Source: Patescibacteria group bacterium
GTDB lineage: Bacteria; Patescibacteriota; Minisyncoccia; UBA6257; UBA9933
Length of the DNA stretch: 60,772 nt
Direction: 5' to 3'
Assembly: GCA_030017615.1 (NCBI GenBank)
Contig: JASEIG010000003.1
Coordinates: 1-60,772, forward strand
Shown here: in pieces, positions 129 through 49,414 of the stretch
How positions within the stretch are numbered: the first letter of the stretch is position 1
How the letters are laid out: every line of letters starts with the position of its first letter
The notes under the pieces: generated by a model
Seen by the model: the letters and a program-made list of their open reading frames with translations, nothing else
Told to the model about the DNA's origin: nothing
Database searches by the model: none
Translations under genes and position numbers: made by a program

Positions 129-1787
129 TTATAATTTTTTCTGCGAATTATCAAGACGCGAAAAAAGATGCGATAACAAACTTAAAGCGTCGAGACAGTC
201 TTTTTCCGTAAATAAACCAGAATCTCTCAAATCGGCAACCTCCTCGTGGTTCACGGAGTTTCTGCAACCGGAAACAACGCCCATGGATAAAAATTTTTGT
301 CCTTCTTCAATGTTGTTTATTGTGGTTGCTTGAAAATTACCACCATCGGGTTTTTTGAAGTTTTGCGCAACCTGCAACAATGTCGCGCTCGTTCCGTTGC
401 CGAAAACCTCGCCCATCATACTTGCTTCACTCGTGTTGACACTTCCCGATTTGGTCTTCACCGCATTGATATATCTTTTCGCCGCTTCTTGAAAAGCTCT
501 GTAATAATCACGCTTTTGATAATCCGCTTCCGAAGCCGTTTTTATTTCTTGGTGTAGATGTCTCCAATGATATTTTGGATATTCCGGCACGATCTCATGG
601 ATTTTTTTAACGGCTTCTTGATGTGTTTCTTCCGGCAATTCTGAATCTTTCATGATTGTTTTGATAACCGGCTCAATTTTTGTCCGGATATCTTCCGGCA
701 ACTTACTAAACCAATCTGGAATATTGATATCCGTAACCTCGCTTAATTTTTTCTCTCTCATCTCATCTCTTTTCTTGCGCCAATCCCTTTCAAGCCAATT
801 AATCAGGCCGCGCAAATGTGTCCGCAACTTTTGCATTTCTTCGTGCCCCCAATTTAAAGATTGTCTGTTGGTAGCGATGACATCATCATCGAGTTCGTCT
901 ATAAAATCAACTTCAAGCCACCCGGTTAGATAAGAGAAAAAGTGGCTTGATGTGCTGTCCGAGAAATATTCGGGCAAATTCACCAACTTTTTTCTTGAAA
1001 ACAAAATAATTCCGCGCATGTTGGTATTGGGCGGTATAGGTTTCTTTGCCGCCATCAAATGTCCGACGATTTGATTCGTCTTATCGTAGTCGTCGGAATA
1101 TTCGGAATCGTCGGGAATTTTCCATTCAACCTCTTTTTCCAAACCAGCGTATCGTCTTTCGTTGGAAACAATAATCGGCTTATCGGAATTATGTTTTACT
1201 AAAACTTCAAAACCGGAATCGATGATAAACATTTTTGAAAGATTGTTCGCAAGGTTTTCGGGAGAAAAATCGCTTTCTCTTTGTATTTTTTTTAAAATTA
1301 TTTTGGTCCCGTGTTCGTCCGCCGAACAATTTTTGTCTTTCTTGATAATTTGCGGTTTATAATCTTTCTTGCTCGTTTTTATGTCTTCCCATTTCATCGC
1401 AAACGAGTTTTCTTTTCCGTCTTTTTTTGTGGCAATTTCAATTTCATGAGCGATACCGAAAAACGACAATTTGCCCAATCCTTTTTTACCGATTATTTTT
1501 CTGCCCTTAAGCGTGGTTTCCAATTTGTCTTCGGCTCTGCGATTTCTTCCAATTCTGAGAAATTTGTCGTTGATCTCGTCAAACGACATGCCCATTCCGT
1601 CGTCCTCGATCATTATTTCCTTTTCGGTTGCCGAGTCGTTTAATGTCAAAACAACATGTTCCGCGTCAGCGTCGTGCGCATTGCCTATCAATTCCGTTAA
1701 TACCGGCGGCAAAGTCGAATACATGCGGACACCGAGGTGTTCTATCGTATTCGGGTCAAATGTCATTTTTAATTCTTTTTGCGGCAT
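129..1787 (-). CDS. GHKL (HATPase_c_3 / MORC-like) ATPase fused to a C-terminal Ymh/TIGR02391-type HEPN domain
   Basis: Bergerat-fold motifs ELIGNAHDA (N box), DDGMGM (G1) and GKKGLGKLSFFG (G2). The C-terminal ~120 aa end in GVVSGCRNSVNHEE (Rx4H HEPN motif) followed by a helical tail. Last gene of the R-M operon, 14 nt after the MTase gene. Confidence 0.75.
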   Translation of the reverse strand: MPQKELKMTFDPNTIEHLGVRMYSTLPPVLTELIGNAHDADAEHVVLTLNDSATEKEIMIEDDGMGMSFDEINDKFLRIGRNRRAEDKLETTLKGRKIIGKKGLGKLSFFGIAHEIEIATKKDGKENSFAMKWEDIKTSKKDYKPQIIKKDKNCSADEHGTKIILKKIQRESDFSPENLANNLSKMFIIDSGFEVLVKHNSDKPIIVSNERRYAGLEKEVEWKIPDDSEYSDDYDKTNQIVGHLMAAKKPIPPNTNMRGIILFSRKKLVNLPEYFSDSTSSHFFSYLTGWLEVDFIDELDDDVIATNRQSLNWGHEEMQKLRTHLRGLINWLERDWRKKRDEMREKKLSEVTDINIPDWFSKLPEDIRTKIEPVIKTIMKDSELPEETHQEAVKKIHEIVPEYPKYHWRHLHQEIKTASEADYQKRDYYRAFQEAAKRYINAVKTKSGSVNTSEASMMGEVFGNGTSATLLQVAQNFKKPDGGNFQATTINNIEEGQKFLSMGVVSGCRNSVNHEEVADLRDSGLFTEKDCLDALSLLSHLFSRLDNSQKKL

Positions 1788-1801: not shown

Positions 1802-2848
1802 TTATTTGGCGAACATTACTATTTGCTTGCCGATTATTTTGGCAAACTTCGGAGGCACAGCGTTTCCTATCATTTTTGCAATGGAGGCCACGCTCGTGCC
1901 GATAAATTCGTAATTTTCAGGAAAAGTTTGCAAAGTCGCTCCTTCTCGCAAAGAAATCGCCCTGTTTTCCTCTGGATGAGCAAAGCGCCCGTTACTAATG
2001 CTGAAAAATTTTGTGGTGATTGTCGGAGATGGTTTGTCCCACCACATGCGTCCGTAAGTATCATAAAATTTTTTCTCGCCGGAAGCGTAGCAGGCCAATT
2101 GAAGAGTTTTTCTATTTTGCCAGCTCGATCTGTTTCCGCCGTTTTTTTCAGTCATTTGCAACCGCTCCAAATTTTTTTTGCTTAAGTTCGAAGCGGTGTG
2201 CAAAAATTTCGTTTTATCTTTGACACCGGCTTTTATCTTTGGAAATCCGTTTTTTATTCCAAGCACATCTCTGACGGTAATTTTTTTACCGGTTGGTTCA
2301 GGCAAAGAAATCCCCGAAACACGCGAAGCCAACAATGTAAAACGTCTTCTCCTTTGAGGCACGCCGTATAAAGACATATCCGTAACGCCATGCGCTACAT
2401 TATATCCGAACGATTCCAGAGCAACGATGAAATTTCCCATTGGACTTTCTTTTTTTGAAGATATGCCGGGCACGTTTTCCACCACAACAAAGCCCGGCCT
2501 GAAATATTCGACAAACTTTTGAAAATCCAGAATCAAATTTTTTGTTTTCCTTGATTTTTCTTTGCTTGTTCGGATAATGCTCCAAAATTGACAGGGAGCG
2601 CAACCAGCAAAAATCATATTGTCGTCGTTTTTTTTGATATTCAAATCACGCTTCAAATCGTCTGGCGAATATTTTGTTATGTCTTTTTTTAGAAAAATCG
2701 CTCCTCTATTGTTTTTTTCAAAAGTTTCTTTGCACGAGCCGTCGTTATCAATGCCGACCAATACCGAAATACCGGCAGCCATAAGGCCGTTAGTAAGCCC
2801 GCCTGCACCGGAAAAAAAATCTATGGCTTTGAGACGATTTCTTATCAT
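1802..2848 (-). CDS. DNA (cytosine-5)-methyltransferase
   Basis: Motif I DFFSGAGGLTNG, motif IV GCAPCQFWS, motif VI ENV, motif VIII QRRRRF, motif X GNAVPP. Confidence 0.9.
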   Translation of the reverse strand: MIRNRLKAIDFFSGAGGLTNGLMAAGISVLVGIDNDGSCKETFEKNNRGAIFLKKDITKYSPDDLKRDLNIKKNDDNMIFAGCAPCQFWSIIRTSKEKSRKTKNLILDFQKFVEYFRPGFVVVENVPGISSKKESPMGNFIVALESFGYNVAHGVTDMSLYGVPQRRRRFTLLASRVSGISLPEPTGKKITVRDVLGIKNGFPKIKAGVKDKTKFLHTASNLSKKNLERLQMTEKNGGNRSSWQNRKTLQLACYASGEKKFYDTYGRMWWDKPSPTITTKFFSISNGRFAHPEENRAISLREGATLQTFPENYEFIGTSVASIAKMIGNAVPPKFAKIIGKQIVMFAK

Positions 2849-2858
2849 ATACTTTTTA

Positions 2859-3254
2859 TTATTTTATTCGTTGAAAATCAAATTTAAAATCTTTTTTCTT
2901 TAAGTCGTGTTCCCAAATTCTTATGATTTTCCAATTCATTTTTTTGTAATGTCGATTGACCAATTTGTCCCGCTGCTTATTACCATCTATTTTCGCTTTC
3001 CAAAACTTCTGTCTTGTCGCGGGGAAACGGCAATGTTTCTTGCAACCGTGCCAAAAACAGGAATCAATAAAAATTACAGTTTCATGTTTTTTCAAAACAA
3101 CATCCGGTTTGCCAAAATATTTTGTTGGATTTTTTCTGTACCTAAATCCTTTTTGCCACAACTCTTTCCTAAATGCGATTTCTATTTTTGTGTCTTTACT
3201 TCTAACGGCACTCATTATTTCGCTTCGTTTCTTTTTAGTAAAAACATCCGTCAT
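2859..3254 (-). CDS. vsr: Very short patch repair endonuclease (T:G mismatch endonuclease)
   Basis: KKKRSEIMSAVRSKDTKIE...GKPDVV...IFIDSCFWHGC...ATRQKFWKAKI..N..RD, collinear with the Vsr family. Lies between two C5-MTase genes. Confidence 0.85.
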   Translation of the reverse strand: MTDVFTKKKRSEIMSAVRSKDTKIEIAFRKELWQKGFRYRKNPTKYFGKPDVVLKKHETVIFIDSCFWHGCKKHCRFPATRQKFWKAKIDGNKQRDKLVNRHYKKMNWKIIRIWEHDLKKKDFKFDFQRIK

Positions 3255-3258
3255 AAGT

Positions 3259-4215
3259 TTAAAATTTCAATGATTGTTGAACGGTCGGCCCGTTGAAAGC
3301 AATCATTTTCCCGGATTGTTTATCGTTTGTATATTCCGCAATACATCTCGCAACGAATTCCGCTAATTTTACCGGCACGGCATTGCCGATCATTTGTTCT
3401 AAATCGGTCTTTTTGCCTTCCCAAACGAACTTTTTTGGAAATGTTTGCACCATTGCTCTTTCCATGGTGGTAAGAGGTCGAACTTTTCCATTGATTGGAG
3501 ACGAATCATTTGCATGTCCATTATAACCTTTTGGGATTGGTCTATTAACCCCCCTTATAGTCGGACTTGGTTCGTCTACGCTGAAAATCGCTCTACGACT
3601 ATAATTTCTTGGATGTCTGTAATAATGCTCGGTATCAAGGGTGTTGCCAAAATAATCCCTGACGGTCATAGGTTTTTCTGATTTATTTTTTTGAAAATAA
3701 TATTCTAAAATATGATCTTCGCCACCCAGCTCTCCGAACATAATAAATCTTTTTCTTGCTTGAGGAACACCGCAATAACTCGCTTCCAGTATTTGATAAG
3801 ATAATCCGTAGCCGGAATCTTTGAAAATTTTTACCGCCTCTTTCAATCTGCGACTTTTGACAATGCGGCCAACATTTTCCATTAAAAAAAACTTTGGCTT
3901 CACTTTTGATATTATTTGAGCATACGCCACAGTTAAATCAGCTCTTCCCAATTCCTCATTTCTTTTACCGGCACTTGAAAAATCTTGGCAAGGCGGCCCA
4001 CCAATGATTATGTCTGGTTTGTATTCGGCGATTTTTTTATGGCTTCTGATGTCGCTTAAGTCCAAATTGATAACATCGTGATCAAAATTTTTTTTGTAGA
4101 TATTTATAGTCGGTTCCCAATTATCAAAAGCTGCAACCACGGAATAACCCGCCTGCATAAAGCCGAGCGAAAGACCGCCGCAACCAGAAAATAAATCTAC
4201 AACTTTGTATTTCAT
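3259..4215 (-). CDS. DNA (cytosine-5)-methyltransferase (second copy, divergent)
   Basis: Motif I DLFSGCGGLSLG, motif IV GGPPCQDFSSAG, ENV, QARKRFI, GNAVPVKL. Confidence 0.9.
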   Translation of the reverse strand: MKYKVVDLFSGCGGLSLGFMQAGYSVVAAFDNWEPTINIYKKNFDHDVINLDLSDIRSHKKIAEYKPDIIIGGPPCQDFSSAGKRNEELGRADLTVAYAQIISKVKPKFFLMENVGRIVKSRRLKEAVKIFKDSGYGLSYQILEASYCGVPQARKRFIMFGELGGEDHILEYYFQKNKSEKPMTVRDYFGNTLDTEHYYRHPRNYSRRAIFSVDEPSPTIRGVNRPIPKGYNGHANDSSPINGKVRPLTTMERAMVQTFPKKFVWEGKKTDLEQMIGNAVPVKLAEFVARCIAEYTNDKQSGKMIAFNGPTVQQSLKF

Positions 4216-4223
4216 AAACTTAT

Positions 4224-5288
4224 TTAATCAAATAACCCTGGCGTGCCCAAAATTACGGAATCAAGTCGCCTTTCTGGGCTAAGCAGATTTTGGCCGCCGC
4301 CAAGAATAATGTTTTTGACCTCTTGTTTTTTAATCCTTGGCATCGTTAATTCTTTACATTTCATAAACGGATAAGACACTCGACCGCTGACAGCAAAGGC
4401 TTTATCATTTTTGGTATTATATGAAAGCTCGTCAATAACTTTTTTATGGTTGACTTTGCCGTCACTAGAGTGATCCAAAAGCATTTTGGCAAGCCAAACG
4501 ACGGATCTTGTTTGTCTGGTTATTTTGTCGTTATCTTTTCTAAGTTCGCCCTTAACAACTTTCAAGAATAATTGCGCGAAAGCAAAATCAGACCAAATAA
4601 AAACATCAAATGCGTTGTCGCTTAACATTTGCGATTTGCCGTTTGTTTTCCAAATAGGTTGTAAAATCAATGGAGTTTGTTTTTCCAATCTGTCGGACAA
4701 AATTTTATCTATCAGTTGGCCCATTAAAGGCAAATATGGAACGATATTTGCCCCGTGCGTCCAATCGGATATTTTGTTAAGCGGTTTTAAGATGTTTTTG
4801 AAAAATTTTCTGTCTTCTTCCAATGACAAGATAATACTCAAGGCCATATAAACTATGGTGTCGGGGCGAACAACGATTTCACAGCCAAATTTATCGTCGG
4901 TTAAACGGCAAGTTGAATTATCAGGCAAAGCAGTCAATTTTATTTCTATCCCTTTAAGACAATTTCCGTTTTTCGAGTTTATCGTTACCAAATCTATCCT
5001 GGGCAAATTATTTACAACAAGTTTTTGAAACGGCGAATAATCACTTTCAAACGAGAAAAATAAATTTGGATCGTCATATTTTAATCCCAGCAATTCATTT
5101 GGATCCAAATAATCATGCAACACTTCCGAGCTTCCGTTTAATTTAAGATATTTCAATTTCAGATTTCTGCTCGCCATATAACAAACAAGCGAAGCGGGAA
5201 AAGACGAATTAAATTGATTCTTTCCCCATGTTTCTTTTTGGGTAAAATCTCGGTTTGAATTTGTTATTCCAAATAAACTTGGTTTCAT
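4224..5288 (-). CDS. Putative type II restriction endonuclease (PD-(D/E)xK); family not identifiable by eye
   Basis: Sits between the C-protein-like HTH gene and the MTase genes. Candidate catalytic motif PRIDLV-x13-EIKL (D...ExK). No other recognisable domain. Confidence 0.5.
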   Translation of the reverse strand: MKPSLFGITNSNRDFTQKETWGKNQFNSSFPASLVCYMASRNLKLKYLKLNGSSEVLHDYLDPNELLGLKYDDPNLFFSFESDYSPFQKLVVNNLPRIDLVTINSKNGNCLKGIEIKLTALPDNSTCRLTDDKFGCEIVVRPDTIVYMALSIILSLEEDRKFFKNILKPLNKISDWTHGANIVPYLPLMGQLIDKILSDRLEKQTPLILQPIWKTNGKSQMLSDNAFDVFIWSDFAFAQLFLKVVKGELRKDNDKITRQTRSVVWLAKMLLDHSSDGKVNHKKVIDELSYNTKNDKAFAVSGRVSYPFMKCKELTMPRIKKQEVKNIILGGGQNLLSPERRLDSVILGTPGLFD

Positions 5289-5292
5289 AAAA

Positions 5293-5487
5293 TTATTTTA
5301 TTAAATCTTCAATGGGAACATTTAACGCCTTGGCGATTTTTTTAAGCGTATCGACTGTCGGGTTCTGCTGTTTGCCCGCCTCTATATTGATTATCGTATT
5401 ATTGGAAACATCGGCAAGCCGCGCCAGTTTTTCCTGCGACAAGCCCAGTTTTTCTCTTAATCGCTTTATTTTACTTGACTCTACCAT
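5293..5487 (-). CDS. XRE-family HTH protein (R-M controller / C-protein-like)
   Basis: 64 aa. LGLSQEKLARLADVSNNTIINIEAG is a classic HTH_3 pattern. First gene of the R-M operon, 4 nt upstream of the REase candidate. Confidence 0.75.
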   Translation of the reverse strand: MVESSKIKRLREKLGLSQEKLARLADVSNNTIINIEAGKQQNPTVDTLKKIAKALNVPIEDLIK

Positions 5488-5761: not shown

Positions 5762-5977
5762 ATGTCAAATAATAATCCCCAGTCAAAAATCGGAAAAAAC
5801 ATTAAGAAATTGCGCCAAGATGAGGGCATCTCACAAGATCGCTTGTCCAAGCTGGCTGATTTGTCGCTTAATACCGTTGTTGCGGTAGAATCGGGCGTAA
5901 ACCCAAATCCTACCATTAAAACACTGACCAAAATTGCCAAAGCGTTAGAAGTCGGCGTTGATGATTTGATCAAATAA
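5762..5977 (+). CDS. XRE-family HTH protein, paralogue of 5293-5487
   Basis: 71 aa, ISQDRLSKLADLSLNTVVAVESG. The C-terminal half aligns with the other HTH (NPT(V/I).TL.KIAKAL.V...DLIK). Stop codon lies 4 nt before the P-type ATPase start. Confidence 0.75.
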   Translation: MSNNNPQSKIGKNIKKLRQDEGISQDRLSKLADLSLNTVVAVESGVNPNPTIKTLTKIAKALEVGVDDLIK

Positions 5978-5981
5978 TTTT

Positions 5982-8666
5982 ATGATGCAACAACTTTTAT
6001 GGCACACCAAAACAATTCCAGAGATTCTCAATACGCTCCACTCGCATGAACACGGCTTAACTAAAAAAGAAGCGAAGTACCGCCTTAGAGAATACGGCCC
6101 CAATAAATTGCCGGAAGGCAAGGTAGACAGCTTGTCCATTATTTTTTTTCGCCAATTCCAAAGCCCGTTGATCTATATCCTTCTTGCGGCAAGCCTGATT
6201 GTTTTTGCGATGAAAGAAGTGATTGACGGCGGCATTATTCTTTTTGTTCTTTTATTCAACGCCGTTGTTGGGACGATTCAAGAAGGAAAAGCTCAAAACA
6301 CCCTTTTGGTGTTGAAGAAATTCGTGGAGACAAATGCCACCGTGCTTCGAGATGACAAAGAGCTTATCATCCCCGATTCAGAAGTGATACCGGGAGATGT
6401 TCTTGTATTACTGGAAGGCGATAAGGTGCCGGCTGACGGTAGAATCGTTATTTCTCATAATCTCAAGATAGATGAAGCGTCTTTGACCGGTGAATCTGAA
6501 CCGATGCATAAAATCGCCGAAGTTTTAAAACAACCTGATCTTCCGACTGCGGAGCAGAAAAACATGGTTTTCAAAGGCACGCATATTGTTGCCGGAAGCG
6601 GCAAAGCAGTTGTGGTGGGCACCGGGCTTAACACCACTGTCGGCAAGATCGCCAAAGAAATCGCGGCGATTGACACGGAAATACCGCTGAAAGCCAATAT
6701 CCGTTATCTCTCGCGTCTTATTATCGTCGCTGTCGCAAGTATCAGCGTCTTGCTCTTCTCGCTCGGCATTGTGCTTGGAAAATCTTTCAAGGAAATGTTT
6801 ACTACGGTGGTTTCCCTTTCAGTTTCTATTATTCCCGAAGGATTACCTATTGTAGTTACGCTTGTGCTCGCCACAGGTGTGTGGAGAATGTCAAAGCGCA
6901 ATGCGCTTGTGAAGAAATTGCAAGCGGTTGAAGCCTTGGGACAAGCGCGCGTAATTGCGGTGGACAAAACTGGAACTATTACCAAAAACGAACTCGTGAT
7001 TCAACGAGTATATGTTGACGGCAATTTTTTTGAAATAGGCGGTGTTGGCTATGAACCAAAAGGAGATATTCATCTTGGAGAGAACATTATTGATCCCCTC
7101 AATCATTCTGAACTTCTTTTTGCCGGCAAAATTGCCGCTTTCTGCGCCAATGCCCATGCCGCCTATTATCCAGAAAATAAAAAGTGGCAAGTATTTGGCG
7201 ATCCCACCGAAGCGGCGCTTGCGGTATTTTCCGAAAAAATAGGTTTTCGCAAAGATGACTTAGAGCGCGAATCTCCCAAAATAGCGGAAGTCCCGTTTGA
7301 TTACAAAACAAAATATCATGTAACCGCGCATAGCGTTGACGGACAAGTGTTACTCACTGTAGTCGGCGCGCCAGAAGGTGTGCTGGGATTATCTTCAAAA
7401 AGATGGGGACAAAATGCTCTTCATCAGCTTTCTAAAAAAGACAAAGAGAATCTGGAGTCCCTATTCTTGGAGATGTCGCAAGAAGGACTCCGCGTATTGG
7501 CTCTGGCAATTAAAGAGAACGCGCCAAAAATCATCGGCCAAGAAGACATTCGCGATCTTGCTTTTGTCGGGTTTGTGGGCATGAAAGACGCGCTCCGCCC
7601 GGAAGTTAAAGACGTAATGCAAAGAGCGGCTTCAGCCAGTATTCGTGTAGTTATGATTACCGGAGATCATAAACTTACCGCTCAAGCCATCGCCAAAGAA
7701 GCAGAAATATATCGCGACGGAGACGAAACGCTTACAGGTTTTGACATCGATTCGATTTCTGATGAAGAGCTGTCTCAAAAACTTGACAAGGTTTCTGTGT
7801 TCGCGAGGGTAACGCCGGAACATAAACTACGCATCATCAATGCCTACCGCAGACGGGGCGAGGTGGTGGCTATGACTGGAGACGGCGTGAATGACGCGCC
7901 GTCGCTTGTGGCGGCGGACCTCGGCGTGGCGATGGGAAAAATTGGCACCGAAGTCGCCAAAGAAGCCTCTGATATCGTGCTCTTGGATGATAACTTCGGA
8001 AACATTGTTTCAGCGGTGGAAGAAGGCCGAAGCATTTACAAAACGATCAAAAAAGTCATCCTCTACTTATTTTCAACGAGTGTTGGCGAAGTGCTCACTA
8101 TTGCCGGAGCATTGTTTCTTGGCTATCCACTCCCTATTTTGGCGGCGCAAATTATCTGGCTAAACTTTGTCACCGACGGATTCCTGGATGTGGCGCTTGC
8201 CATGGAGCCAAAAGAAGAAGGGTTGTTGCGAGGCAATTTTGAACGGCCGAAAAAGTATCTTGTTGACAAACTCATGGCGCAACGGATGTTTGTAATGGCT
8301 GTTCCGATGATGATCGGGACCCTATTCCTTTTCAAAGATTATTATGAAATCGATTTAGTAAAGGCTTGGACGATGTCGTTGACGACACTCGCGGTATTTC
8401 AGTGGTTTAACGCCTGGAACTGCCGGCATGAATCAAAATCCATATTCCAGATGAATCCATTTTCCAATAAATTCTTGGTCGGAGCGACCGCGATTATCGT
8501 CTTTTTGCAGATGCTTGCGATTTATAATCCCCTCATGCAAAAAATCCTCCATACCGCAGAGATTTCGCTCTCCGAATGGATGCTTATTATTCCCGTGGCG
8601 GCCTCCATTGTTCTTGTCGAGGAAATAAGAAAATTCTTTTATCGAAGAAAAGTTACGACATTATAA
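5982..8666 (+). CDS. Cation-transporting P-type ATPase (P2, Ca2+-ATPase-like)
   Basis: DKTGTITKN phosphorylation site, MITGDHKLTA, TGDGVNDAPSL hinge, N-terminal cation_ATPase_N-like segment, about 10 TM segments. Confidence 0.9.
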   Translation: MMQQLLWHTKTIPEILNTLHSHEHGLTKKEAKYRLREYGPNKLPEGKVDSLSIIFFRQFQSPLIYILLAASLIVFAMKEVIDGGIILFVLLFNAVVGTIQEGKAQNTLLVLKKFVETNATVLRDDKELIIPDSEVIPGDVLVLLEGDKVPADGRIVISHNLKIDEASLTGESEPMHKIAEVLKQPDLPTAEQKNMVFKGTHIVAGSGKAVVVGTGLNTTVGKIAKEIAAIDTEIPLKANIRYLSRLIIVAVASISVLLFSLGIVLGKSFKEMFTTVVSLSVSIIPEGLPIVVTLVLATGVWRMSKRNALVKKLQAVEALGQARVIAVDKTGTITKNELVIQRVYVDGNFFEIGGVGYEPKGDIHLGENIIDPLNHSELLFAGKIAAFCANAHAAYYPENKKWQVFGDPTEAALAVFSEKIGFRKDDLERESPKIAEVPFDYKTKYHVTAHSVDGQVLLTVVGAPEGVLGLSSKRWGQNALHQLSKKDKENLESLFLEMSQEGLRVLALAIKENAPKIIGQEDIRDLAFVGFVGMKDALRPEVKDVMQRAASASIRVVMITGDHKLTAQAIAKEAEIYRDGDETLTGFDIDSISDEELSQKLDKVSVFARVTPEHKLRIINAYRRRGEVVAMTGDGVNDAPSLVAADLGVAMGKIGTEVAKEASDIVLLDDNFGNIVSAVEEGRSIYKTIKKVILYLFSTSVGEVLTIAGALFLGYPLPILAAQIIWLNFVTDGFLDVALAMEPKEEGLLRGNFERPKKYLVDKLMAQRMFVMAVPMMIGTLFLFKDYYEIDLVKAWTMSLTTLAVFQWFNAWNCRHESKSIFQMNPFSNKFLVGATAIIVFLQMLAIYNPLMQKILHTAEISLSEWMLIIPVAASIVLVEEIRKFFYRRKVTTL

Positions 8667-40281: not shown

Positions 40282-42435
40282 TTAATTTTCCAATTTCAAT
40301 GAAAGCAATTTTGAGGTGCCGTCGTCGTTCATAGTAACTCCGTAAAGCGCGTCGGCGGCTTCCATAACAGTTCTGTTGTGGGTAACTATGATAAATTGGA
40401 CTTTATGCGTGAATTCTTTTATTAAATTCGCAAAACGCCGGGAATTTTGTTCGTCCAATGGCGCGTCTATTTCATCAAGCACTAAAAACGGCGGGGGACT
40501 GACTGAAATTAAAGCGAACAAGGCGGCAATTGAAACTAAACTTTTTTCTCCACCCGATAAAATATCCAGACTGGTTATTCTTTTCTTCGGCAGATTCAAT
40601 TCAATCTCAATTCCCGCAGTCTTCTCCTGCTCTTCTTTTTTTGTATTACTCTCGCTTTCTCCTTTACTGTCGGTTATTAGTTGTCGGTCGTTGGTTTTTA
40701 GTTTCAACCTTGCATTTCCTCCCCCGAACATAATTTTGAAGAATTTATTAAACCCTTCGTTTATTTCTTTAAACGCATGGTTAAATTTTGAAGTAATATC
40801 AGTTTTAAGCTCTTCAATCAGTTTTTCCAAATCTTTTGAAGCTTTTCCCAAATCATCCGATTGTATGGAAAGATGGCTGTAATGCGCCTCAACTTCCTGC
40901 GCTTCTTTTATAAGCGATTCGTCAATTTCTCCGATACTGATAAGTTCTGCGCGAAACCTCATCATTTGCCGCTCCATTTCATCCGCTTGGCTTTGCGATA
41001 AAATTTTATCTGATTTCAATTTTTCAAATTCTTGCTCGTCTCTTTCATTTCTTATCCATTCGCGCTTCAATTCGGCAATTTTTGAATTTAACTTTTCAAT
41101 TTCAAAATTAAAATAACCTTTTTTATTTTCCAAATTCCTTATCTCTTCTCGCTTTTTTTCTTTTATTTCAAAAGACTTCTTAAATTCTTGATTAAAATTT
41201 TCCAGAGAAGCGGCTGTTGCGCTTTCTTGTTCTTTTATTTTTTTTATCTCTATTTCAATAAATTCCAAATTTTTCGCTAAATCATTCTTTTCCTTTTCCG
41301 CCTCCTTCAATTCTTTGCCGATTTCATTTTTTGGTTGATCAAAATAATCGTTTATTTTTTGAACCAGCGATTTAATTGAAAAAATTATTTTATTTAAATC
41401 GGTTTCTTTTAAATTTTTTTCCAATGATTCGCGGATGCTTTTTACGAGAGAAACCATCTTGTCTTTTTTTAGAACATCTCCGCCTTGGTCAACGGAAAGA
41501 AATTCTATCCTTGTTTCAATACGGCCCATTTCCCTTTGTATTCGCGATTGTTTTTCAATCAAGTCTTTTTCTTTGTTTTTAAACTCCAAATCATTATTTT
41601 TTATCTGTCCGCCGGCTTCAATTTTTTTTAATTCTTCCGACAAAACTTCCAACTTCTTTAATTTTTTGGAAATTTCCAAATTTAATTCCGCAACTTGTTC
41701 GTTATGTTTTTTTAACAAATTTTTAATTTCCGTTGTTTTAGAACCGAAATAAATATTTTCCGCATTTTTTAATTCCTCTTTTTTCTGGTCTCTTGTCTGG
41801 TATTTTGAAACTTGGCGTTTTAACATACGAAGTCGCGGAGCCACCTCTTCGGCCATTAATTTTATTTTTTCCAAATTTGAGTAAGTGGCTGACAACTTTC
41901 TTTCGGCTTCTGATTTTTTAAGTTGATATTCTTTAAGCCCCAAAACTTCTTCTATTATTATTCTTCTGTCATACGGCGAAACTCTCACAAACAAATCGCT
42001 TGAACCCTGATTTATAACCACGATACCTTTTGTGCCTAACCGCGCGCGAGCGAAAAAATCAACCGCGTCTTTTGCGCGGACCTCCGATTTATTAAGAAAA
42101 TATGTTGAATTGCCGTCACGGCTGATTTCTCGCGCGACAGTCATTTCGTTAAAGTCAATAGGAAAAAGTTTTACGTTGTTTTCAAATAAAATTTCAACTT
42201 TTGCCGTTCCCGCGCGCGGTTTTTTTACCGTTCCCGCGAATATTAAATCTTCGGTTTTTTCTCCGCGTAAATTTTTTGTCTCTCTTTCGCCCAGTATCCA
42301 GCGTATTGCGTCAATAATGTTTGATTTGCCCGAACCATTAGGACCGACAATAGCCGTAACGCCCTTTGGAAATTTTAAAACGGTTTTCTGCGCGAAAGAT
42401 TTAAACCCGATTAATTCCAATGATTTTAAAAACAT
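40282..42435 (-). CDS. smc: SMC-family ATPase, short (717 aa), no recognisable hinge domain
   Basis: Walker A GPNGSGKSN, signature LSGGEKS, Walker B LVLDEIDAPLD. The ~400 aa between the head halves is K/E-rich coiled coil without a globular hinge. Confidence 0.75.
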   Translation of the reverse strand: MFLKSLELIGFKSFAQKTVLKFPKGVTAIVGPNGSGKSNIIDAIRWILGERETKNLRGEKTEDLIFAGTVKKPRAGTAKVEILFENNVKLFPIDFNEMTVAREISRDGNSTYFLNKSEVRAKDAVDFFARARLGTKGIVVINQGSSDLFVRVSPYDRRIIIEEVLGLKEYQLKKSEAERKLSATYSNLEKIKLMAEEVAPRLRMLKRQVSKYQTRDQKKEELKNAENIYFGSKTTEIKNLLKKHNEQVAELNLEISKKLKKLEVLSEELKKIEAGGQIKNNDLEFKNKEKDLIEKQSRIQREMGRIETRIEFLSVDQGGDVLKKDKMVSLVKSIRESLEKNLKETDLNKIIFSIKSLVQKINDYFDQPKNEIGKELKEAEKEKNDLAKNLEFIEIEIKKIKEQESATAASLENFNQEFKKSFEIKEKKREEIRNLENKKGYFNFEIEKLNSKIAELKREWIRNERDEQEFEKLKSDKILSQSQADEMERQMMRFRAELISIGEIDESLIKEAQEVEAHYSHLSIQSDDLGKASKDLEKLIEELKTDITSKFNHAFKEINEGFNKFFKIMFGGGNARLKLKTNDRQLITDSKGESESNTKKEEQEKTAGIEIELNLPKKRITSLDILSGGEKSLVSIAALFALISVSPPPFLVLDEIDAPLDEQNSRRFANLIKEFTHKVQFIIVTHNRTVMEAADALYGVTMNDDGTSKLLSLKLEN

Positions 42436-47198: not shown

Positions 47199-47236
47199 AA
47201 AAAGGCGGATATTTATCCGCCTTTTTTGTTTTTTTA
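47199..47236. terminator. Bidirectional rho-independent terminator (jag / polA convergent)
   Basis: aaaaa-ggcgga-tattta-tccgcc-ttttttgttttttt. Overlaps the polA stop codon. Confidence 0.8.
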
Positions 47237-49414
47237 CGCTTCGCTCCAATTATCGCCAATACGCGCGTTAATTTTTAGGGAAACCTCTAATTTATAAATA
47301 CTCTCCATAGTTTTACTTATAATATTAATGATTTCTTTCAGATTTTCATCGTCTCTAATTTCAAAAATCAATTCATCATGAATTGTTAAAAGCATTTTTG
47401 CGTTTTCTCCCCAAAAATTTTTCTTTTCCAATTCTTGTTTTACTTTTGCCATAGCCATTTTTATGATATCGGCCGCCAAACTTTGAATGGGAAAATTAAT
47501 TGCCATTCTTTCCGCTTCCGATTGAACTCTCGGATTAAACGACAAAATTTCCGGCAACGCCCTTGTTCTGCCGTTTAAATTTTCCACAAATCCTTTCTCT
47601 CTCGCGCGGGTTAAAATTATTTCCTGCCATTTTTTTATTTCCGGGAAATCCTTAAAATATTCTTTTATAAATTTTTTCGCTTCTTCTTGCGGCAATCCGC
47701 TTTGTCGGCCGAACGCTCTCGCGCCCATTCCGTACACAATCCCGAAATTAAGCGTTTTCGCCGTTTTTCTCATCTGCGAAGTAACATTTTCTTCTGAAAC
47801 GTTAAAAATATTGCTTGCCGTCATTTGATGGATATCCAAATCGTTTTCAAACGCGTCAAGCATTTTAGGAACCTGCGCGAGCGATGCCAAAATTCTCAAC
47901 TCTATTTGCGAATAATCAAAAGAAGCCAATTTATATCCTTTATCTGTCACAAAAATTTCGCGAATTGATTCCGGAATGTTTTGGAGATTCGGGTTCTCGC
48001 AGGTAATTCTTCCTGTTAACGCCTTATCTTGCACAAAAGTCGGATGAATTCGCCCGTCTTTTTGCGTCAGTTTTTTAAACGGCTCCAAGCAAGTTGATTT
48101 TAATTTGAATAATTCGCGGTATTTTAAAACGAGGTCGGCAAAAGGAATTTTCCCTCTTATAACAACTAATTTTTCAAAATTAGTTGACTTGATTTTTAAC
48201 CCGAATTTTTCTTTTAAAATTTCAAGGAGTTGTTTCGGCGAATTTATATTAAAAACAACATTGACTTCTTTGTGTATTTTTTTCGTCAATTCCGATAATT
48301 CGCCGTTTATTTTTAATTCCATTTTCTCCAAAACATTTAAATCAATTTTAATGCCCCATTCCTCCATTTCTTTTAAAATCGGCGTCAGCGGCTTTTCAAT
48401 CTCATCTGTGATTTTTTTAGAAGCAACCGGAAAGGAGATTTTAAAAAATGTTTGTTGTCCGCTTTTCTTTGTTTGTCCGTCGCCTGTTTGTCCGTTAAGC
48501 GGAGGTGTTTCTTTTGCGAGTTTTTGCGAAATCCTTTTAATTAGGCTTTGAAATCCCATTTTCGCGAAATAGGAAATCAAATTTTTTGTTGCAACACCCT
48601 CATATTTCAATTCGGAAATGTTTTTTATTTCAACCGGAGCGTCGCAATTAATTGTCGCTAAATGTTTGGAAAGTAAAACTTGTTCTTTATTTTCTAACAC
48701 TTTTAAAATAACATTTCTTTCTTTTTCTGGAATGGAACCCGATATTTCTTTTTCTTTGAATAATTCAAAAATTTTTTCAACACTTTCATATTTTTGAATT
48801 AACATAGTTGCGGTTTTGGGACCGATTCCCTTCACTCCTAAAATATTATCCGATGGATCGCCGACTAATCCTTTATAATCCGGGATTTGATTTGGAGAAA
48901 TCCCATATCTTTGCATAACCGCGTCTTCGTTGTAAATAATAGTTTCGCTCACGCCTTTTTTTAAAGTTTCAACCACAATCTTGTCGTCTTTTACCAGTTG
49001 AAGCGTGTCTAAGTCTCCGGTTAAAATTATTATTTTCAAATCTTTTTCATTTTCCAGTTTGCGCGCCATGACTCCTATTAAATCATCGGCTTCATATCCC
49101 GGCATTTCGTATTTTTTAACTCCGAAAATTTCAAATAAATTTCTGGCCTCAATAAGTTGAGCGACTAATTCGTCCGGCGCTTTCGGCCTGTGGATTTTAT
49201 AATCTTCGTATAATTTTTTTCTAAAAGTTGGTTCCGGCCGGTCAAAAAAAACCGCCGCGTAATCATGCGGGTTTTCTTTGAAAATTTTTAAGAGAATTAT
49301 TGAAAGCCCGTAAATCGCTCCGCTCGGCGCACCGTCTTTATTGGTTAAGTTCGGCAAAGCGTGGAAAGAACGGTGTATTAAAGCGTGCGCGTCTATAAGC
49401 AAAAGAGTTTTCAT
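47234..49414 (-). CDS. polA: DNA polymerase I (5' nuclease plus polymerase; no 3'-5' exonuclease domain)
   Basis: N-terminal 5'-3' exo (LIDAHALIHRSFHA, GIGPKTA). Pol motifs A DYSQIELR, B RKTAKTLNFGIVYG, C HDE. Only ~55 aa link the two modules. Confidence 0.9.
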   Translation of the reverse strand: MKTLLLIDAHALIHRSFHALPNLTNKDGAPSGAIYGLSIILLKIFKENPHDYAAVFFDRPEPTFRKKLYEDYKIHRPKAPDELVAQLIEARNLFEIFGVKKYEMPGYEADDLIGVMARKLENEKDLKIIILTGDLDTLQLVKDDKIVVETLKKGVSETIIYNEDAVMQRYGISPNQIPDYKGLVGDPSDNILGVKGIGPKTATMLIQKYESVEKIFELFKEKEISGSIPEKERNVILKVLENKEQVLLSKHLATINCDAPVEIKNISELKYEGVATKNLISYFAKMGFQSLIKRISQKLAKETPPLNGQTGDGQTKKSGQQTFFKISFPVASKKITDEIEKPLTPILKEMEEWGIKIDLNVLEKMELKINGELSELTKKIHKEVNVVFNINSPKQLLEILKEKFGLKIKSTNFEKLVVIRGKIPFADLVLKYRELFKLKSTCLEPFKKLTQKDGRIHPTFVQDKALTGRITCENPNLQNIPESIREIFVTDKGYKLASFDYSQIELRILASLAQVPKMLDAFENDLDIHQMTASNIFNVSEENVTSQMRKTAKTLNFGIVYGMGARAFGRQSGLPQEEAKKFIKEYFKDFPEIKKWQEIILTRAREKGFVENLNGRTRALPEILSFNPRVQSEAERMAINFPIQSLAADIIKMAMAKVKQELEKKNFWGENAKMLLTIHDELIFEIRDDENLKEIINIISKTMESIYKLEVSLKINARIGDNWSEA

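Follow-up and report, generated by a model that had tools for sequence, protein, structure and literature searches.

We analyzed a stretch of 60,772 nucleotides (nt) from a Patescibacteria group bacterium (contig JASEIG010000003.1 of GenBank assembly GCA_030017615.1, positions 1 to 60,772 of the forward strand; in the following called the window), focusing on one gene at 129..1787 on the minus strand. This gene encodes a protein of 552 amino acids (aa) that joins an N-terminal GHKL ATPase to a C-terminal HEPN domain of the Ymh type, and in related loci it almost always lies next to a gene for a C5 cytosine methyltransferase (MTase). We propose that it is the effector, or “R”, half of a mobile (Vsr)-M(C5)-GHKL/HEPN cassette, in which methylation would keep a predicted ATP-gated RNase silent. 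We assign this reading a probability of about 0.4. A methylation-gated effector is the simplest explanation because the protein combines an intact clamp with a HEPN motif, is linked to an MTase and shares its chassis with restriction enzymes.

Domain architecture of the GHKL/HEPN protein

The gene and the parts of its product, from the N- to the C-terminus, are the following.

129..1787, minus strand: GHKL/S5-HEPN(Ymh) effector gene, 552 aa, ATG start, open reading frame (ORF) with Pfam and NCBIfam matches
1278..1787, minus strand (aa 1–170): GHKL (Bergerat-fold) ATPase domain, HATPase_c_3
1668–1694, minus strand (aa 32–40): motif I, ELIGNAHDA
1587–1604, minus strand (aa 62–67): motif II, DDGMGM
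1455–1490, minus strand (aa 100–111): motif III, GKKGLGKLSFFG
aa 160–161, minus strand: motif IV, GT
843..1277, minus strand (aa 171–315): middle alpha/beta domain, S5/transducer-like, delineated by Foldseek, the NF050001 match region and conservation
564..842, minus strand: long helix (aa 316–352) and helical linker bundle (aa 356–407), from AlphaFold2 (AF2) secondary structure
132..563, minus strand (aa 409–552): Ymh-type HEPN domain, PF09509 and TIGR02391
246–263, minus strand (aa 509–514): RNSVNH, within GCRNSVNH

The original prediction for this gene had described a GHKL/MORC-like ATPase fused to a Ymh-type HEPN domain in a 552-aa ORF, based on the motifs ELIGNAHDA, DDGMGM, motif III and GCRNSVNH. 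All of these motifs are present, and profile searches recovered both domains far beyond chance: the ATPase as Pfam HATPase_c_3 (aa 27–161, E-value 2.7e-23) and the C-terminal domain as Hypoth_Ymh, PF09509 (aa 409–545, E-value 4.8e-14, 52.7 bits against a cut-off of 25, profile positions 1–119 of 119), as well as TIGR02391 (54.7 bits against a cut-off of 39.45, profile positions 1–125 of 125).

The elements typical of the GHKL superfamily are all present, namely ExxxN, DxGxG, the GxxGxG lid and a conserved threonine. In an alignment of 61 sequences spanning down to 30% identity, the GHKL residues E32, N36, D39, D62, G64, G66, G100, K102, G103, G105, K106, G111 and T161 are invariant, as are G259, Y286, G289, R308 and W313 in the middle domain. 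The helix and linker region (aa 316–407) is the least conserved stretch of the protein in the conservation profile. Scans with Pfam and NCBIfam found no ABC or AAA family in the N-terminal part.

An AF2 model of the whole protein, built on 61 homologs, reached a mean predicted local distance difference test (pLDDT) value of 89.8. With this model, Foldseek matched aa 1 to ~400 to the N-terminal and middle domains of HtpG, TRAP1, Hsp90 and GRP94, as well as to the ATPase modules of MORC2 and MORC3 at E-values of 1e-13 to 1e-11, in alignments of ~360–460 columns with target-normalized template modeling (TM) scores of up to 0.57. Judged from the model, aa 1–315 are a GHKL plus S5 clamp of the MORC/Hsp90/MutL kind, arranged like a MORC/paraMORC-type module. 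A search of PDB sequences with the whole protein yielded only weak matches to HtpG and TRAP1, and the models of the sacsin ATP-binding region matched aa 21–118 weakly.

We place the C-terminus in the HEPN superfamily because of the PF09509 and TIGR02391 matches, the conserved motif and the published assignment of PF09509 to HEPN, with a conserved Rx4-6H motif (PMC3710099). In the protein, the motif is R509-N-x-x-x-H514. Its conservation had been anticipated and was borne out by the 61-sequence alignment, in which H514 is invariant (61/61), R509 is arginine in 53/61 and lysine in 4/61, and N510 is asparagine in 53/61. Among 121 close homologs, histidine occupies the position of H514 in 120 and arginine that of R509 in 114.

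Modeled alone, the C-terminal domain is all-alpha with a pLDDT of 90.4. HEPN proteins make up 15 of its top 50 Foldseek matches in the PDB, all below significance; these include the entries 1ufb, 2hsb and 1wol, the HepT structures 7ae6, 7ae8, 7bxo, 5yep and 6m6w and the AbiV structure 9bj7, and the proteins named among them comprise TT1696, AF_0298, ST0689, several HepT toxins and AbiV. With regard to the HEPN fold that had been predicted, this enrichment makes the model-based fold comparison no more than suggestive. Comparing the same model with BFVD gave nothing informative, and a profile search of PDB sequences with the C-terminal domain gave nothing meaningful. Pfam, NCBIfam and PADLOC detected no PD-(D/E)xK, SduA_C or other DNase domain in the protein. 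A weak PADLOC match links aa 409–551 to positions 140–266 of 270 of PD-lambda-3 component B (PDLC03987; E-value 0.0011, 16.4 bits); PD-lambda-3 serves as an abortive-infection control in a later paper, and we count this weak match as support.

A C5 methyltransferase as the conserved partner

In the window, the effector gene is part of a run of six genes that share one direction, with gaps of 4–14 nt between them, in the order C protein, R.HindVP, M1, Vsr, M2 and GHKL/HEPN. Listed outward from the effector gene, its neighbors, which include components of a restriction-modification (R-M) system with its restriction endonuclease (REase), are as follows.

1802..2848, minus strand: M2, cognate C5 cytosine MTase of the cassette, 348 aa, PF00145 (E-value 8.6e-55)
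2859..3254, minus strand: Vsr, very-short-patch repair endonuclease, 131 aa, PF03852 (E-value 5.5e-30), TIGR00632 above cut-off
3259..4215, minus strand: M1, C5 MTase of the HindVP-type R-M system, PF00145 (E-value 6.4e-71)
4224..5288, minus strand: HindVP-family REase, PF09519 (E-value 3.3e-141)
5293..5487, minus strand: helix-turn-helix (HTH) control (C) protein, 64 aa, HTH_3, Control_protein in PADLOC

This run consists of two modules, a complete HindVP-type R-M system and the cassette Vsr-M2-GHKL/HEPN. The gene had been described as the last one of an R-M operon; the R-M context holds, the run is made up of the two modules, and the last position is not provable within the window because just 128 nt follow the stop codon. 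In a relative with 86% identity (P0005), a small ORF and, beyond it, unrelated metabolic genes come after the GHKL/HEPN homolog.

To delineate the conserved part of this arrangement, we compared 172 related loci, of which GTDB genomes contributed 12 and metagenomes and IMG/VR 80 each. Ymh-type effectors are encoded in 71 of these loci, 49 of which have at least 1 kb on both sides. A C5 MTase gene lies within 200 nt of the effector gene in 46 of the 49, and in 41 it is located directly upstream and co-directional. Where genome loci had upstream sequence, an M2-type C5 MTase (40–85% identical to M2) was found directly upstream on the same strand in every case (11/11). The three exceptions lacking a C5 MTase within 200 nt are L027 (3364–5154), where an AAA_15 ATPase separates the effector from a C5 MTase one gene further away, L042, which has no recognizable C5 MTase, and L031, described below. 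Vsr is encoded within 1.5 kb in 20 of the 49 loci.

Apart from the MTase and Vsr, every recurring gene family is limited to at most five loci. Recurring neighbors are a HaeII REase with its own MTase (5 loci), serine recombinases (5), a pair of an AAA_15 ATPase and a DUF3226 protein (4), and HpaII, Z1/DEAD and NgoFVII (2 each); a HaeIII system stands beside the cassette in one locus. The pair of an AAA_15/AAA_21 ATPase and DUF3226 lies upstream of M in L034, L036, L037 and L048, and this ATPase may be another defense module or an accessory. A recognizable Type II REase is located directly upstream in the same operon in ~8 of 50 loci. Because the MTase is near-constant, Vsr frequent and other families rare, we regard (Vsr)-M-effector as the conserved unit, with Vsr as its facultative third gene and C-R.HindVP-M1 as a separate neighbor outside the cassette.

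The identity of the MTase to M2 rises with that of the effector to the window protein (Spearman 0.67, p = 7e-9, n = 60). MTase and effector are inherited as a unit, and the MTase adjoins the effector as a cognate MTase does in Type II systems. The expectation that homologs sit in R-M neighborhoods agrees with these counts. The suggestion that the gene serves as a backup to the neighboring Type II R-M system does not, as the HindVP enzyme has no homolog in any of the 172 loci and a C5 MTase adjoins the effector instead; for this lack of recurrence, we rejected the HindVP R-M system as a guarded partner.

In the loci of the P0005 relative (L173–L176, 86% identical), the M2-effector cassette follows a different system, which consists of an HTH controller together with an EcoRI-type methylase and a GmrSD_N/HNH protein. 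Apparently, the cassette is mobile and integrates at the 3′ ends of operons of other R-M systems. In the window, Vsr (2859–3254), which separates the HindVP R-M system from the M2 cassette, could act for both m5C methylases.

Relation to the HgiDII/BbrUII restriction enzymes

In a homolog search, the window protein matched more than 2387 clusters at 90% identity, and each of the 120 best was a full-length PF13589 plus PF09509 protein. Looking up its exact sequence in public assemblies gave no record. When 1.84 billion representatives were searched exhaustively, the relatives split into two groups, one of proteins of ~540–590 aa that align end to end and contain the Ymh domain, and one of proteins of ~600–680 aa that align over residues 1–400 only.

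The second group leads to a known family of restriction enzymes. These sister proteins match the NCBIfam model NF050001 (“BbrUII/HgiDII family restriction enzyme”) over its full length with 274–382 bits (P0170, P0171 and P0243 match positions 1–654), and they are MTase-linked in 71 of 83 loci. Their C-termini match SduA_C, HSDR_N, HSDR_N_2 and NucS_C, all PD-(D/E)xK families, weakly and show a D...ExK pattern. The window protein matches NF050001 with aa 7–387 (E-value 1.7e-72, profile positions 2–407 of 659), and its 245 bits lie below the curated cut-off of 550 bits for full-length members. Two PADLOC REase_II models match the same region, aa 7–387, with E-values of 5e-35 and 3e-32. Among the other PADLOC models, no Shedu model matched and PD-lambda-3 component B matched only weakly. 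Homology to HgiDII ends at ~aa 400, precisely where the PD-(D/E)xK-like domain of the HgiDII clade starts.

Because the two groups share residues 1–400 and differ in the C-terminus, one chassis seems to have been armed with either a DNase or a HEPN domain: a DNase in the HgiDII/BbrUII clade and a predicted RNase (HEPN) in the clade of the window gene. R.HgiDII and R.BbrUII resemble the window protein in the GHKL plus middle-domain chassis (aa 7–387) and the adjacent C5 MTase, and differ in their PD-(D/E)xK-like C-terminus of ~230 aa, in the place of which the window protein has HEPN. The recognition sequence of this family is GTCGAC. Since aa 1–400 are homologous to BbrUII/HgiDII, the gene is more plausibly the “R” of a methylase-effector pair of its own than an accessory to another R-M system. 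Membership in the BbrUII/HgiDII family itself was rejected, as was membership in Shedu, because the defining C-terminal nuclease (DUF4263/SduA_C in the case of Shedu) is absent.

Related architectures have been described before. R.HgiDII was reported as GHKL plus an unassigned C-terminus and R.NmeAIP as GHKL plus Hypoth_Ymh (Orlowski & Bujnicki 2008, PMC2441816), and paraMORC3 combines GHKL and S5 with a restriction-fold nuclease (Iyer et al. 2008, PMC2292703). A phage gene annotated as ParaMORC3 matches aa 5–395 of the window protein at 27% identity. In VcSduA, a GHKL-PD-(D/E)xK Shedu protein, phage defense requires both ATPase and nuclease residues, which provides a precedent for ATPase-controlled nuclease logic in defense (PMC12137116). 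[quoted passage not shown]

The family occurs in Verrucomicrobiota, Anaerolineales, Nitrospirales, Thermodesulfobacteriota, Bdellovibrionales and Paceibacterota, and further in Clostridium, Fibrobacter, Pacearchaeota, Burkholderia and Neisseria. Identities of 38–86% across such distant hosts point to frequent horizontal transfer; values of 60–86% were found across Verrucomicrobiota, Chloroflexota, Nitrospirota, Patescibacteria/CPR lineages, Clostridium and DPANN archaea.

The Neisseria locus and a possible CCGG specificity

One relative connects the cassette to a named R-M system. A full-length homolog with 38% identity is encoded in Neisseria gonorrhoeae on NZ_CP119142.1 (L177, 2933–6072), a 2.17-Mb replicon filed as a plasmid in PLSDB, with a C5 MTase gene upstream of the effector and Vsr downstream. 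The NmeAI system of N. meningitidis consists of three genes, M(C5), R and Vsr (PMC3787668), and we equated the gonococcal locus with NmeAI by this architecture alone, without the REBASE sequence. NmeAI resembles the window cassette in this gene set and in R.NmeAIP, with its GHKL N-terminus and C-terminal Hypoth_Ymh. The Neisseria locus differs in its 38% identity, in Vsr lying downstream, whereas it lies upstream in the window, and in that the gonococcal copy is a pseudogene. It is decayed by two in-frame stop codons in the effector and a frameshift in the MTase, while Vsr looks intact, and the effector keeps the motifs ELIANAYDA, GKKGLGKL and FRNPVQH.

The gonococcal MTase is 48% identical to M2 over its N-terminal part and 62% identical over aa 186–344, which include the target-recognition region. 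M.NmeAI methylates C-m5C-GG (PMC4676702). Because of these identities and this mark, M2 may share the specificity, and the mark it sets is probably C-m5C-GG.

The locus L031 (3652–7635) may be relevant to this specificity. There, the effector directly follows a HpaII-family REase (PF09561, E-value 5e-136) and an M2-type MTase is lacking. The sole C5 MTase of the locus is M.HpaII-like, lies upstream of the REase and is 25% identical to M2, so that one MTase apparently serves the classical REase and the HEPN effector together. In L054, a HpaII-type pair is also located just upstream. L031 hints that the methyl mark matters more than the particular MTase protein.

We also compared the occurrence of palindromes in the window with Markov expectation. 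Strongly avoided are TCGA (30 observed versus 174 expected), GATC (69 versus 177), GGCC (91 versus 164), ACGT (49 versus 103), GTAC (15 versus 49) and CTAG (9 versus 34), which suggests that the DNA has long been exposed to several 4-cutter R-M systems. The avoidance of CCGG is only mild (238 versus 297) and neither confirms nor excludes this sequence as the site of the cassette.

Proposed mechanism and alternative explanations

In the mechanism that we propose, M2 would mark host DNA, probably as C-m5C-GG. The GHKL ATPase and the middle domain (aa 1–315) would dimerize and close upon ATP binding, as other members of the fold do, and the long helix and linker (aa 316–408) would tie the ATPase to the HEPN domain (aa 409–552). 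When the clamp meets unmethylated DNA, be it of a phage, of a plasmid or of the host after loss of the cassette, ATP-driven closure would activate the paired HEPN domains. These would then cleave RNA (tRNA, rRNA or mRNA) by the metal-independent Rx4H mechanism, and the resulting translation arrest would lead to abortive infection or post-segregational killing. The protein would be an RNase-armed sibling of the HgiDII/BbrUII restriction enzymes. RNase activity, ATP gating, methylation sensing and a defense phenotype are what we infer here from the observed architecture, motif conservation, MTase linkage with its synteny and chassis homology. In its most specific form, an R-M system with a non-DNA-cutting arm whose MORC/Hsp90-like clamp reads methylation (probably at CCGG) and fires the HEPN RNase on unmethylated DNA, we put the idea forward more tentatively still.

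Several observations weigh against the methylation-gated reading. No element that reads DNA sequence or methylation was identified in the effector; a scan for covariation between 30-aa windows of the effector and the target-recognition domain of the MTase gave a largest partial correlation of 0.14 and thus no candidate for a DNA-specificity element. The Foldseek comparison of the C-terminal model with the PDB gave no significant match (best E-value 0.43, TM scores 0.42–0.50), and the position of R509 is lysine or lost in a minority of homologs. On the side of the specificity, the CCGG assignment of M2 rests on 48–62% identity to the MTase of a locus equated by architecture, and the argument from L031 and HpaII is a single locus. 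In ~16% of loci, the operon includes a canonical Type II REase, which also fits a guard or backup role. A literature search, with most subscription journals outside its coverage, found no experimental work on the GHKL-HEPN family.

Such a guard would be a latent anticodon-type nuclease like PrrC/RloC, masked by contact with the REase or M2 and released by a phage anti-restriction factor, with methylation not being the signal. The original prediction had suggested a PrrC-like role, and the analogy is already published (Anantharaman et al. 2013, PMC3710099). The protein follows the same NTPase-plus-HEPN logic as PrrC, its MTase is constant and co-operonic, and the cassette often stands behind other complete R-M systems (that of HindVP in the window, those of HaeII, HpaII and HaeIII in 5, 2 and 1 loci, respectively, and EcoRI-methylase/GmrSD-HNH in the P0005 loci). 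We nevertheless consider a guard doubtful. There is no conserved REase, as the HindVP and Type II counts given above show, and a lone methylase is no defense in need of a backup. L031 swaps in an unrelated MTase together with its HpaII-family REase, which speaks against a specific protein–protein mask. Furthermore, a GHKL ATPase takes the place of the ABC-type one, and the gene does not lie in a Type I hsd locus. The REBASE label R.NmeAIP stands for another possibility, a true Type II-like endonuclease that depends on ATP and cuts unmethylated DNA, in which Ymh would serve DNA binding or dimerization, or cutting would be done by an unrecognized DNase site or a partner such as Vsr. For this argue the chassis homology to the DNA-cutting BbrUII/HgiDII, the PADLOC REase_II matches, the classical M-R gene pair and the usage in REBASE and in the literature. 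However, no DNase domain is detectable and the homology stops where the PD-(D/E)xK-like domain of HgiDII begins. The conserved catalytic signature is RNxxxH, and Rx4H HEPN chemistry uses the 2′-OH of RNA. MutL-type GHKL proteins do activate separate nucleases, including Vsr (PMC2292703), but Vsr is found in only 20 of the 49 loci, and we judge an endonuclease to be unlikely.

The cassette could also be mainly a selfish addiction module, an M-effector pair that persists via post-segregational killing and contributes little to phage defense. Its extreme horizontal mobility, with 60–86% identity across distant phyla and DPANN archaea, its insertion behind varied operons and the decay of both genes in N. 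gonorrhoeae would fit. This explanation overlaps with the methylation-gated effector, as classical R-M systems do both, and the defense-island neighbors (R-M systems, AAA_15, Z1/DEAD, serine recombinases) are typical of defense genes; as the main function, addiction seems improbable to us. We regard it as highly improbable that the protein is a MutL-like accessory for the Vsr repair of m5C deamination damage and neither a toxin nor a defense effector, even though a MutL-superfamily GHKL plus S5 module stands beside dcm-like and vsr genes and E. coli MutL stimulates Vsr (cited in PMC2292703). Vsr is absent from over half of the loci, the conserved HEPN catalytic motif would have no role in such repair, and the sister clade on the same chassis consists of restriction and defense nucleases.

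Comparison with previously described systems

The fusion of Ymh HEPN domains to paraMORC GHKL ATPases in R-M neighborhoods was described together with the proposed PrrC/RloC analogy (Anantharaman et al. 2013, PMC3710099). As the architecture and the analogy are both published (PMC3710099, PMC2441816), the window gene belongs to a known, computationally described kind. Within its coverage, the literature search, as assumed in the original prediction, turned up no experimentally characterized GHKL-HEPN protein. New here are the quantified near-obligate pairing with an own C5 MTase rather than an REase, the DNase/RNase swap made explicit for the HgiDII/BbrUII chassis, a tentative link to CCGG and, resulting in a sharper hypothesis, the idea of an R-M-like system with an RNase arm.

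PrrC and RloC resemble the window protein in having an NTPase N-terminal to an HEPN-type RNase domain and in their R-M association (PMC3710099). They differ in their ABC/Rad50-type ATPases, where the window protein has GHKL, and share no sequence homology with it outside the HEPN motif. PrrC is encoded within a Type Ic hsd locus, and the complete EcoprrI enzyme masks it. No hsd genes were found at the window locus, whose sole conserved partner is the C5 MTase. [quoted passage not shown]

Members of this large family cross phyla, occurring in bacteria, CPR lineages and DPANN archaea, and the NmeAI locus of pathogenic Neisseria is among them. In NCBI they are called “TIGR02391 family protein”, and REBASE has the type as a putative Type II enzyme; annotation probably files them as an ordinary Type II restriction enzyme, as “TIGR02391 family protein” or as “ATP-binding protein”. 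If methylation gates the RNase, the cassette would be a hybrid of R-M and abortive infection, a natural DNase-to-RNase swap on one sensor chassis and a bacterial model for MORC-type clamps reading epigenetic marks, and some putative Type II entries in REBASE would not be DNA endonucleases. Were the protein a DNase or a PrrC-like guard instead, the result would be useful yet incremental.

Further features of the window

In positions 1–128 of the window, 3′ of the stop codon of the GHKL/HEPN gene, lies a GC-rich inverted repeat, GGCGG...CCGCC, with an A-run after it on the gene strand. Because of this A-run, the repeat does not resemble an intrinsic terminator of the GHKL/HEPN gene; it may be the terminator of a convergent transcript from beyond the window edge. 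Scanning for terminators and promoters around the gene gave nothing above shuffled background. On the other side of the six-gene run, a 71-aa HTH_3 ORF (5762–5977, plus strand) is divergent from the R-M control gene and lies directly upstream of a P-type ATPase (5982–8666). This ORF could encode a second controller or an unrelated regulator.

The window contains no tRNA genes and no Rfam matches. Its remaining part is ordinary chromosome, with genes for MetRS, a GatA-like amidase, PNPase, a Mur ligase, a beta-CASP RNase, a T2SSE ATPase, SMC and Pol I. The SMC protein (40282–42435, minus strand) is unusually short with 717 aa, and the Pol I ORF (47234–49414, minus strand) has 5′–3′ exonuclease and polymerase domains and no Pfam match for a 3′–5′ exonuclease domain. 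Both features fit a reduced-genome (CPR-like) host.

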